64,000 bases of DNA, from NCBI GenBank assembly GCA_000165345.1, contig CM000434.1:544001-608000 (forward strand), in the 5' to 3' direction. Within the stretch, counting starts at the first letter, position 1; each line of letters begins with the position of its first letter. Positions 38,486 to 48,376 of the stretch are shown piece after piece. The notes beneath the pieces were generated by a model. The model saw nothing but the letters and a program-made list of their open reading frames with translations, was not told the DNA's origin and ran no database searches. The translations under genes and the position numbers were made by a program.

Positions 38486-38568
38486 GACAGTGTGGCCGAG
38501 TGGTCTAAGGCGTCAGACTTGAAATCTGATGTGGTCTCCACGCGCAGGTTCAAATCCTGCCACTGTCG
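38486..38568 (+). tRNA. tRNA-Ser(UGA): tRNA-Ser (anticodon UGA), class II with a long variable arm
   Basis: GACAGTG/CACTGTC acceptor. D-arm GGCCGAGTGGTCTAAGGC. Anticodon loop CTTGAAA. Variable arm TGTGGTCTCCACGCG. T-arm CAGGTTCAAATCCTG. Near-identical to canonical eukaryotic tRNA-Ser. Confidence 0.95.
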
Positions 38569-38569
38569 C

Positions 38570-45157: not shown

Positions 45158-45899
45158 CTAAACAACGTTTTTATCAGAAAAGTACAGGGATTCTTCCAAA
45201 TTGTTTATTTCATCAAAGTTTACAGTATTCTCAACGGTCTATAGGAATAATTATAAATATTATAAGGTAATCTTTCTTTTTTCAAACTCACCTCCGTCTT
45301 TCCTTTCAATCTAGCAATAGAAAAAACTCTTAACATTTGAAGGCAAAATCTAGATGATGTTAGGATTTGTTCAAATATATCAGTGGCCTAGAATGTTATT
45401 AGTGAATTAACTAACGCGTTAATATTTATATTTAACTTACTATCTGGTTATTTCTTAAATCGGCAATTTTTTTTGTAGCAAAAAGTCTTCGAATATCACC
45501 ATTTAAGAATAATAATGAAAGGCAGGTCAATGCAACAACAAAGTCAAATACATTATTTACTTTGTTAAAAAATCTTTTTTTCATTAAGAATAGTTTAATT
45601 ATTACTTCAAATGTCAAGGTTAGTGTTATAATTGTTTCCAGGAAAATAGAAAATCTACTTCCTGATTGAGCCCTAAACAAGCCACTGAAAAGAACCAAGA
45701 TGTTTAATAAAAAAATTCCAAGGTAGAGATATTTTGAAAACTCAGAATAGTATAATCTTTTAACTATTGTAATAGCCCTTTCCTCACATGTTAAATTTGA
45801 AGCCCAAAATGAAAACCCTTGATCTCTGGAGCTTCCGTTAATTTCAAAGTTGTGAAAATCGGTACTAGTAAGTCCTCCAGGGTATCTATACATATCCAT
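45158..45899 (-). CDS. Four-helix voltage-sensor-domain (VSD) membrane protein, Hv1-like, with no pore domain. Three exons: join(complement 45899..45441, 45387..45292, 45238..45158), 211 aa.
   Basis: S2 LETIITLTLTFEVIIKLFLMKKRFF carries the E...FE..K charge-transfer pattern. S3 NKVNNVFDFVVALTCL carries N..D (compare Hv1 [28 protein letters not shown]). An S4-like SRFCLQMLRVFSIARLKGK is encoded by exon 2. The track ORF runs through the first intron (GTAAGT) to a false stop. Both introns are 53 nt with canonical ends. Confidence 0.6.
45239..45291 (-). other. Spliceosomal intron 2 (53 nt) of the VSD gene
   Basis: GTGAGTTTGAAAAAAG...TTCCTATAG, phase 0. Confidence 0.5.
45388..45440 (-). other. 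Spliceosomal intron 1 (53 nt) of the VSD gene
   Basis: GTAAGTTAAATAT...ACATTCTAG, phase 0. Confidence 0.55.
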
Positions 45900-46971: not shown

Positions 46972-48376
46972 ATGTGTTTTATTTCATTGAATTCGTATAT
47001 TAAAGATGTCCCAGTTATTTTCATTTTTGGTACAACAGGTAGATTAACTTATTACATTCAATAAGGCTTAAATAACTTTTTTAAATCTTTGTTATTTCTA
47101 TAATGTGTAGCTTCTGGCAAAACTCGTTTATCTATAGATATCTGGAAATATCTTGACAAAAAAGTATGTTTATTCAATTCATATAGAAAACCATATTTTC
47201 TTTTTAGGGATTTAAATCAGAAATAATAAATTGCGACTCAATGCAACTATACAAAGGCTTTGATATTGGAACTGCTAAAGTATCCAAAGAAATTCGTAAT
47301 AGAATCCCTCATCACCTATTAGATGTTTTTGATATTGATGAAGATTGTACAGCCTCCAAATATATCAGTATAGCAGTACCAATAGTAAGTTGTGATTTAA
47401 AAGTAAATTCAGTGCATTTATATCACATATAGATCGATAGATTGATCAGCGAAAATGTTACTCCAATTATTGTTGGTGGCACTCACATGTACCTTAAAGC
47501 GTTGATTTGGAAGTCTATTATTGACTCAGAAACATGTAGTAGCGTAAATCCTTCAATTAAAGATGAAGAATACTCAAACTTCACAAACGAGGAGTTGCTT
47601 GAACAGCTTTCGAAGATTGACCCTGAAAGAGCATTGTCATTAAATATAAATGACCGACGAAAAATAATCAGAGGGATAGAGGTAAATTTTTATAAATATT
47701 TATTAATCACAGTTAAGTAGATTCATAGATTTATAACACAAACGGGTTAACATTTACAGAGTTAAAGAAAATTCATCCATACAAAGTTAGATACAACAAT
47801 AGTGTATTATTTTGGGTAAGAAATAACAATATAAGAGAATGCATAGATATAAGAATAAATGAAATGATTAATGTAAGTTGCAATTCAGCGTCATATTTAA
47901 ATTTGAACATTCTTCCATAGGATGGATTATTAAAAGAGGTTTTTTTACTTAAGGAGAGGTTATTAACTTGTAATAAATATATTGGTTTATTACAAGGAAT
48001 AGCCTACAAAGAATTCATAGATATTCTCGACAAAAAAACAAAAATAGAAGACATTTCCGAAGAAGAACTCAATATATGTATTGAAAATTTGCGTATAAAG
48101 ACGTTTCAATACAGTAAGAGACAAGAGAAATTCATTAAAAAACATATAATTAATCGCGGATTAAATGTAAATATATTAGAATTTGATGGTGAAGTATCAG
48201 ATAGTCAGAAATTGGAACTACTTGAATTTAATTTTCAAAGTACTTCAATTATTTATAAATACTTGTCTAAATTATTTAATTTAAAGAATAACTCTGAAAG
48301 CAAACAAGTTTATTCATCTTGGGAAAAGTCAGTGTTAACTCGCGCATTCATGATTCTGGATAAAAAATTAAGTTAA
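46972..48376 (+). CDS. MOD5: tRNA dimethylallyl(isopentenyl)transferase (MiaA/Mod5/TRIT1). Six exons: join(46972..47038, 47111..47163, 47208..47384, 47433..47681, 47729..47872, 47921..48376), 381 aa.
   Basis: Spliced product: MCFISLNSYIKDVPVIFIFGTT|ASGKTRLSIDIWKYLDKK|GFKSEIINCDSMQLYKGFDIGTAK...|IDRLISENVTPIIVGGTHMY...RGIE|IYNTNGLTFTELKKIHPYKV...|DGLLKEV...QYSKRQEKFIKK. It carries the P-loop, DSMQxY, VGGT and C-terminal MiaA motifs in order. The track shows only three fragments. Confidence 0.8.
47039..47110 (+). other. Intron 1 (72 nt, GTAGAT..TGTAG) of the IPT gene
   Basis: Needed to join the GTT | ASGKT P-loop halves. Phase 1. Confidence 0.6.
47164..47207 (+). other. Intron 2 (44 nt, GTATGT..TTTAG)
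   Basis: Phase 0. Joins ...YLDKK to GFKSEIINCDSMQ. Confidence 0.65.
47385..47432 (+). other. Intron 3 (48 nt, GTAAGT..ATATAG)
   Basis: In-frame intron containing a TAG. Removal joins AVPI to IDRLISENVTPIIVGG. Confidence 0.7.
47682..47728 (+). other. Intron 4 (47 nt, GTAAAT..TTCATAG)
   Basis: Only this acceptor keeps the frame open into IYNTNGLTFTELKK. Confidence 0.65.
47873..47920 (+). other. Intron 5 (48 nt, GTAAGT..CCATAG)
   Basis: Joins ...RINEMIN to DGLLKEVFLL... Confidence 0.7.

Follow-up and report, generated by a model that had tools for sequence, protein, structure and literature searches.

Which protein is encoded by a short gene on the minus strand of a 64-kb stretch of Cryptosporidium DNA (GenBank assembly GCA_000165345.1, contig CM000434.1, forward-strand positions 544,001–608,000; the whole stretch is hereafter called the window), and what role could it play as a voltage-sensor-like protein with no pore? 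The gene occupies window positions 45158–45899, and an original prediction, made from the DNA alone, described its product as a pore-less, Hv1-like protein consisting of a voltage-sensor domain (VSD). Comparative sequence analysis and structure modelling identify the locus with high confidence as a stand-alone VSD of the Cav/Nav type, not of the Hv1 type. The protein comprises a pre-S1 helix, the helices S1–S4 and a short acidic tail. The gene is organized as follows.

45899–45441, minus strand: exon 1 (459 nt), encoding residues 1–153, that is, the N-terminal cytosolic segment, the pre-S1 helix, S1–S3 and the start of the S3–S4 loop (from the list of open reading frames and splice reconstruction)
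45440–45388, minus strand: intron 1 (53 nt), GTAAGT...TTCTAG, phase 0, located in the S3–S4 loop
45387–45292, minus strand: exon 2 (96 nt), encoding residues 154–185, that is, S4 and little else
45291–45239, minus strand: intron 2 (53 nt), GTGAGT...CTATAG, phase 0, located just past S4
45238–45158, minus strand: exon 3 (81 nt), encoding residues 186–211, the cytosolic acidic tail, followed by the TAG stop codon at 45160–45158

The spliced open reading frame (ORF) encodes 211 residues. The unspliced ORF (45899–45432) encodes 155 residues; it runs through the GTAAGT at 45440 and ends in QIVS and a stop codon. The 155-residue frame reads into an intron, as had been suggested, and the coordinates and lengths originally assigned to the three-exon, 211-residue model with its two 53-nt introns are all correct.

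The gene model was evaluated using a DNA alignment of the window and the orthologous loci of C. hominis, C. ubiquitum, C. canis, C. felis, C. bovis and C. ryanae. The gene order LUC7, IPPT, Rpr2, VSD gene and PPTA is common to the loci fetched from these six other species. Identical junctions generate an open frame of 210–212 residues in all seven species. Exon 1 is 459 nt long in six of the seven (456 nt in C. canis), and exon 2 is exactly 96 nt long in every one, and thus S4 always lies on a separate exon there, as had been proposed for the window. Introns 1 and 2 vary in length (46–58 and 45–143 nt, respectively) and are not tied to multiples of three, although both are exactly 53 nt long in the window and in C. 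hominis, which are 97.4% identical in DNA over 3.75 kb, as would be anticipated if the window were from C. parvum or a near sibling. Relative to the distant species, identity drops to 38–50% in the introns (45–50% in intron 1) but stays at 55–81% in the exons (69–81% in exons 1 and 2). Variable alignment columns at codon positions 1, 2 and 3 number 65, 42 and 134 in exon 1; 12, 4 and 30 in exon 2; and 17, 8 and 25 in exon 3. Three-exon models of 211 or 212 residues are already annotated in C. hominis (CHM_6g2520; 211 residues, 98% identical protein), C. ubiquitum, C. bovis and C. xiaoi. Moreover, homologs derived from the transcriptomes of Siedleckia, Platyproteum, Colponema and Vitrella align without a break across the residues that exons 2 and 3 contribute. 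The 211-residue spliced product is very likely on this comparative evidence, because the exons are constrained, the introns diverge with GT..AG retained, and distant transcript-derived homologs hold both S4 and the tail.

A gene-model artefact, with the introns retained and the 155-residue three-helix ORF as the true product, or with a decaying locus, is barely credible. Public models in four other Cryptosporidium species do end in an intron or omit exon 2, as such an artefact would have it. However, exons 2 and 3 show constraint biased by codon position across the seven species, the length of exon 2 is invariant, the introns are free in length and sequence and yet keep GT..AG at both sites in all seven species, and the distant transcript-derived homologs carry the same S4 and IDF tail.

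The truncated or S4-skipping public models appear to be wrong and should be corrected. The models of C. canis (186 residues) and C. ryanae (214 residues) read into intron 2, and that of the chipmunk genotype I Cryptosporidium (160 residues) reads into intron 1. In the C. felis model (176 residues), exon 1 is joined to an internal site in exon 3, and the S4 exon is skipped. The genomic DNA of C. canis, C. ryanae and C. felis supports intact three-exon genes encoding 210–212 residues.

Relatives of the protein were collected by an exhaustive hidden Markov model (HMM) search seeded with six Cryptosporidium orthologs (E ≤ 1e-3). The search revealed a family of 88 relatives, mostly 150–350 residues long, with E values from 4e-48 (C. 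muris) to 1e-11 and beyond; with the family alignment as query, a word-indexed homolog search brought in few further distant members. In addition to the species aligned above, the Cryptosporidium members include C. muris, C. andersoni and C. serpentis (211 residues), and the entry CMU_007310 belongs to the family. The other apicomplexan relatives come from Plasmodium spp. (annotated as 'conserved protein, unknown function'), Neospora, Besnoitia, Toxoplasma (TGME49_246460), Eimeria, Theileria, Cardiosporidium, Siedleckia and Platyproteum. Vitrella and Colponema represent further alveolates. Outside the alveolates, members were found in the fungi Blastocladiella, Mortierella and Lichtheimia, the labyrinthulomycete Aplanochytrium and the glaucophyte Cyanophora. 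No animal member was recovered in these family searches. Several members bear the automatic UniProt name 'Ion transport domain-containing protein'. Judged by sequence, TGME49_246460 and the Plasmodium protein have their Cryptosporidium ortholog in the window gene, and the family is an old, widespread and uncharacterised eukaryotic VSD-only lineage.

The fold of the family was addressed by profile comparison and modelling. Hydropathy analysis of the 211-residue protein indicated four helices, three of them strongly hydrophobic and one, the fourth, amphipathic. A phmmer search of the PDB sequences with the single protein retrieved almost only VSDs, of which repeat IV of Cav1.1 was the best match (E = 1.4e-3), followed by NavAb. 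The family profile matched all four repeats of Cav2.2 in the PDB (E = 9e-31). Single Cav repeats scored 37–48 bits against the profile, with S4 included in one case; repeat IV of Cav1.2 reached 48.4 bits over profile positions 39–163, including S4, and repeat IV of Cav2.2 and NavAb reached 37.8 and 40.7 bits, respectively. Several relatives also match the Pfam family Ion_trans (PF00520) at positions 1–117 of 241, which correspond to S1–S4, at 27–38 bits (gathering score, 25). At the level of sequence, the nearest relatives of the family are the S1–S4 repeats of Cav/Nav/CatSper-type channels, not Hv1.

An AlphaFold2 model built with a 42-sequence family alignment had a predicted local distance difference test (pLDDT) score of 71.6, with values of 80–91 in the core; with the six Cryptosporidium sequences only, the score was 38.6. 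The model contains helices at residues 38–51, 53–75, 82–112, 114–132 and 152–187, and its best Foldseek matches are the VSDs of NavAb, TPC2 and Nav1.7. The modelled helices, the Foldseek matches and the hydropathy pattern agree with the four-helix S1–S4 architecture that had been proposed, and both the structure and profile searches place the helices in a VSD and not in another fold family.

No pore or enzyme follows the sensor. The VSD-gene stop codon lies 72 nt from the end (45085) of the convergent PPTA (prenyltransferase alpha) ORF, the protein extends for 33 residues past S4, and no Pfam domain is found there, in line with what the gene's position had suggested. Likewise, no domain beyond S1–S4 of Ion_trans was detected with Pfam in any family member, including the longer Toxoplasma and Besnoitia proteins and metagenomic members of 300–520 residues. 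The sensors of Cav/Nav channels, NavAb/CavAb and CatSper, which were recovered by the structure searches, share with the window protein the S2 pattern E...E...R/K, the S3 pattern (W)NxFD and a pre-S1 helix. Unlike these channels, the window protein lacks an S5–S6 pore, and homologous transcripts are complete at ∼200 residues. KCNQ1 (Kv7.1) is a six-helix, pore-forming channel with more S4 charges, and the window family has one extra residue between the Arg and the Gln of S4. In Ci-VSP/TPTE, a PTEN-like phosphatase domain is positioned after S4, but the window protein has none. A resemblance of the post-S4 segment 'KR...DDIDFS' to the PTEN/VSP linker 'KRRY..DGFDLDL' was considered and rejected: the best matches of a profile of S4 and the tail were unrelated proteins (E = 0.27), and neither VSP nor PTEN nor any channel was among its matches.

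The residue-level anatomy of the sensor was defined in an alignment of 85 family sequences, which underlies all column frequencies given here; counts in S4 refer to the 80 sequences without a gap. The structural elements map to the window as follows.

45747–45788, minus strand: pre-S1 (S0) amphipathic helix, CEERAITIVKRLYY (modelled helix 38–51)
45675–45743, minus strand: S1 helix, residues 53–75, with Asn66 at the position of Hv1 Asp112 (modelled helix 53–75; register against human Hv1 from hhalign)
45585–45650, minus strand: S2 helix, residues 84–105, with the outer Glu88, the plug Leu95, the inner Glu98 and Lys102 (from the Cav VSD and Hv1 alignments)
45501–45554, minus strand: S3 helix, residues 116–133, with N116-x-F-D119 and Cys126 (modelled helix 114–132)
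45313–45381, minus strand: S4 helix, residues 156–178, with R166-x3-Q170-x2-R173; S176 and R179 continue the three-residue register
45215–45223, minus strand: IDF-like motif V191-N192-F193, the local form of the family motif I/V-D/N-F (columns I42+V24, D54 and F63 of 85)

The pre-S1 helix carries the RLYYS motif (R48-L-Y-Y-S52), in which R48 is found in 72 of the 85 sequences and S52, one residue past the 45747–45788 interval, in 75. Y59, near-invariant across the family, is part of the pre-S1 'ANRLYYS...Y' helix. The VSD countercharges E88, E98, K102 and D119 are all present, and their columns are conserved in 82–85 of the 85 sequences when D/E and R/K exchanges are counted (76 for R/K at position 102). 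By residue, position 88 holds 72 Glu and 10 Asp, position 98 holds 80 Glu and 4 Asp, and position 102 holds 62 Arg and 14 Lys. In S3, N116 and D119 are retained in 75 and 83 sequences, respectively. The plug differs from that of Cav/Nav sensors, where a Phe or Tyr is found; three residues before the inner S2 Glu, the window protein has no aromatic residue but Leu95, which aligns with Hv1 F150 and the Cav Phe. This column consists of L57/M12/I7/F5/V3, with Leu, Met or Ile in 76 of the 85 sequences. Cys126 (codon 45522–45524, minus strand; 71 Cys and 9 Ser) belongs to the outer half of S3, where it shares a helix face with Asp119 and stands two turns above that residue. A conserved buried cysteine in the sensor crevice is unusual, and it might form a metal, redox or ligand site.

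The S4-like helix encoded by exon 2 is ATDIFEQILTSSRFCLQMLRVFSIARLKGKTE. S4 of Cav/Nav sensors has a basic residue at every third position, four to six in total, whereas the window family has R-x3-Q-x2-R, with R166 in 79, Q170 in 71 and R173 in 76 of the sequences. The three-residue register of the window protein runs through Q170, R173, S176 and R179, with R166 offset by one, and does not amount to a ladder of at least three to four basic residues at every third position. When aligned with S4 of Cav1.2 repeat IV (FFR-LFR-VMR-LVK), R166 corresponds to the first Arg, Q170 to the second with a one-residue offset, R173 to the third and S176 to the Lys. R166 and R173 are the only S4 arginines conserved family-wide, and the earlier remark that S4 has few gating charges is confirmed by these two arginines around Gln170. 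S4 is followed by a basic cluster and then by I/V-D/N-F, often with preceding acidic residues. The window protein has every signature of the family: RLYYS, the S2 pattern E-x6-L-x2-E-x3-R/K, N-x-F-D and Cys in S3, R-x3-Q-x2-R in S4, the post-S4 basic cluster and I/V-D/N-F.

In some members, I/V-D-F is repeated two or three times in the tail (DLDFDIDFG, TIDF...SIDF and DIDFSTFDPDIDYEF), and many family tails have acidic-hydrophobic ends such as DDGL, DDEL and EDEF. The repeated acidic IDF tail resembles a short linear motif for binding or export. In yeast Gap1p, 'DID' is a di-acidic COPII signal.

The assignment to the Cav/Nav type was contrasted with the Hv1 reading, for which the human Hv1 sequence was checked against PDB entries 5oqk and 3a2a. 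Hv1 is likewise a stand-alone VSD, comparable in size and with both termini in the cytosol, and the window protein of ∼200 residues without a pore domain would conform to it in these respects. The S2/S3 match to Hv1, on which the label 'Hv1-like' had been based, stands, because the HMM alignment pairs E98 with E153, K102 with K157 and D119 with D174. This match is genuine yet not specific for Hv1, because those residues are common to voltage sensors generally. Hv channels are defined by an acidic selectivity-filter residue in S1 (Asp, rarely Glu; D112 in human Hv1) and by RxWRxxR in S4, and Hv-like sequences without these elements are deemed unlikely to be proton-selective (PMC10377628). Both defining features are missing from the window protein. 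hhalign places Asn66 opposite Hv1 Asp112 in an alignment that has a probability of 68% and ends before S4; the Asn66 column consists of N49/S16/A10/T3/G3, and Asp and Glu are not among its five commonest residues. S4 (SSRFCLQMLRVFSIAR; R166-F-C-L-Q170-M-L-R173) contains no Trp and no RxWRxxR. The family HMM matches human Hv1 at 28.2 bits over S1–S3 only, below the 37–48 bits that single Cav repeats reach and the 41 bits of NavAb, and S4 falls outside both the hhalign and the HMM alignments. Neither Hv1 nor VSP is among the best 60 PDB matches of the family profile. In a further difference from Hv1, no long C-terminal helix suited to a coiled coil is predicted for the protein, whose 33-residue tail is modelled with low confidence. 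Although the S2/S3 part of the Hv1 comparison was upheld, the S1 Asp, the S4 motif and the score rank did not follow it, and an Hv1-type voltage-gated proton channel is very unlikely.

The sensor keeps all countercharges but only two ladder arginines, seven residues apart, with a conserved neutral Gln between them. In the mechanism proposed for this arrangement, Gln170 would sit in the constriction formed by Leu95, Arg166 would pair outward with Glu88 (and Asn66), and Arg173 would pair inward with Glu98 and Asp119. The sensor could then shift at most approximately one charge per step, in either direction. Its output would be a conformational change handed on to lipids or a partner protein by way of the pre-S1 helix and of the S4-proximal basic linker with the IDF tail. 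Because a pore, an enzyme and the proton-conducting Asp and Trp of Hv1 are missing, the reading favoured tentatively, at somewhat less than an even chance, is that the protein works in the plasma membrane or in late secretory membranes as a sensor or adaptor of low gating charge and carries no proton current.

The Toxoplasma ortholog provides the indication of location. TGME49_246460 is expressed in tachyzoites, and hyperLOPIT assigns it to the class 'PM - peripheral 2' with a TAGM-MCMC probability of 0.998 (PMC7670262 Table S4). Coccidian orthologs (Neospora, Besnoitia and Toxoplasma) have a low-complexity N-terminal extension of ∼450–500 residues without a Pfam domain ahead of the C-terminal VSD, and Plasmodium orthologs have a shorter one of ∼130–170 residues.

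A number of observations weigh against the favoured identity and mechanism. The 211-residue protein by itself gave no significant match in Pfam (TMEM175, E = 0.5). The residue pairings are deduced from alignment and helix registers, and the near-invariant Gln together with the polar Asn66, Thr/Asn92 and Cys126 along the crevice would be equally in keeping with a site of permeation or ligand binding. As for location, the 'PM - peripheral 2' class was defined for peripheral inner-leaflet proteins, TAGM-MAP left TGME49_246460 unassigned (Golgi, p ∼1e-9), and the authors note blurred borders among the Golgi, vesicle and plasma membrane classes (PMC7670262). The N-terminal extension of ∼450 residues in Toxoplasma is, moreover, missing in Cryptosporidium. 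Taken together, the identity and the sensor/adaptor mechanism stand at about an even balance, which is a compromise between the firmer and the weaker part.

Two other functions have to be set against a low-charge sensor or adaptor, and each is unlikely but not negligibly so. In one, the chief competitor, the sensor itself conducts: the neutral Gln in the constriction would pass protons or small cations as a natural omega or gating pore, for instance as a leak in the Golgi, endosomal or plasma membrane. Arg-to-Gln/Gly/His mutations in S4 of Nav1.4 and Cav1.1 cause gating-pore currents, a precedent in favour of such conduction. The conservation of Gln170 points in the same direction, given that mere charge loss would allow many residues at this position, as do the polar lining of the crevice (Asn66, Thr/Asn92 and Cys126), the Leu in place of Phe at the plug and the Golgi/plasma membrane ambiguity of the Toxoplasma ortholog, which is compatible with an endomembrane leak. 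Gating-pore or omega currents are also created by changes in the hydrophobic gasket of Hv1 (PMC6754559) and by single countercharge changes in Ci-VSP (PMC10686229). However, the countercharges and flanking arginines, which seal the crevice in canonical VSDs, are fully kept in the family, and Leu, Met and Ile are still bulky plugs. A constitutive leak would be costly to the cell, and a pure channel role would leave the conserved cytosolic motifs unexplained.

In the other, judged about as unlikely as conduction, the protein is a voltage-insensitive relic that serves as a four-helix membrane scaffold (for instance to bind lipids, to guide trafficking or sorting, or as an auxiliary subunit), with its buried charges kept for folding. 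Many S1–S4 domains, such as those of TRP channels and repeat I of TPC, are not voltage sensors, and an S4 with two arginines only, off the canonical three-residue repeat, would suit such a scaffold, as would the often repeated (D)IDF tail in its resemblance to a short linear binding or export motif. This reading is countered by the 85–98% conservation of the countercharges from alveolates to fungi, along with a basic residue one turn below Glu98 and the S3 N-x-x-D, which is more than folding usually demands.

For the sensor or adaptor reading, TMEM266 (HVRP1) is a precedent for sensing by a VSD alone. A metazoan protein, TMEM266 has a charge-rich S4 and reportedly does not conduct. Like the window protein, it has S1–S4 without a pore or enzyme. 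TMEM266 shows that a VSD-only protein is able to work as a voltage sensor (PMC6392501). Compared by description only, the window family differs in being charge-poor and in occurring in alveolates, early fungi, stramenopiles and a glaucophyte, whereas TMEM266 is metazoan.

Literature searches using cgd6_2520, TGME49_246460, Hv1/VSD in Apicomplexa or Cryptosporidium, and VSD-only proteins turned up no main-text account of the family, whatever the organism. One Neospora paper was retrieved, but it concerns a different, six-helix protein. The claim that such a protein had not been described in a Cryptosporidium-type apicomplexan is therefore retained insofar as no paper on the protein was found, but it needs to be narrowed, because the gene already stands annotated as hypothetical, orthologs are annotated too and the family is pan-apicomplexan and wider, not specific to Cryptosporidium.

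Few kinds of pore-less voltage sensor are known, namely Hv1, the voltage-sensing phosphatases and TMEM266, each of which has been instructive about the workings of S1–S4 domains, and the window family adds a fourth, uncharacterised lineage. Its conserved Arg-Gln-Arg S4 and aliphatic plug provide a natural experiment on the minimal needs for sensing or for conduction by a sensor. The apicomplexan setting adds to this interest: the setting and sensing of membrane potential and pH are poorly understood there, Cryptosporidium has few recognisable channels, and the protein is a compact, conserved membrane protein of apicomplexan pathogens that would be located at the plasma membrane if the Toxoplasma location holds. 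A more speculative and rather doubtful proposal is that the family represents an unrecognised ancient class of stand-alone sensors, marked by R-x3-Q-x2-R, the Leu plug, the crevice Cys and the IDF tail, that occurs in all major apicomplexan pathogens (Cryptosporidium, Plasmodium, Toxoplasma, Theileria and Eimeria) and is apparently absent from their animal hosts. Its members would be functionally active: they would either lead ions or protons through the VSD itself, as a new kind of pathway, or sense voltage as a subunit of an effector at the parasite plasma membrane.

On the 5′ side of the VSD gene, a divergent Rpr2-like gene lies ∼200 nt from its start. The nearby IPPT gene (tRNA isopentenyltransferase, plus strand) is split into two ORFs at 47241–47432 and 47442–47720. 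An intron of 48 nt at 47385–47432 (plus strand; GTAAGT...ATATAG, phase 0) joins ...AVPI to IDRLISENVTPIIVGGTHMY. The IPPT frame extends upstream of the listed ATG (EIINCDSMQLY), which places the true start further 5′. The 64-kb window yielded a single tRNA gene, for tRNA-Ser (anticodon TGA), at 38486–38569 on the plus strand.

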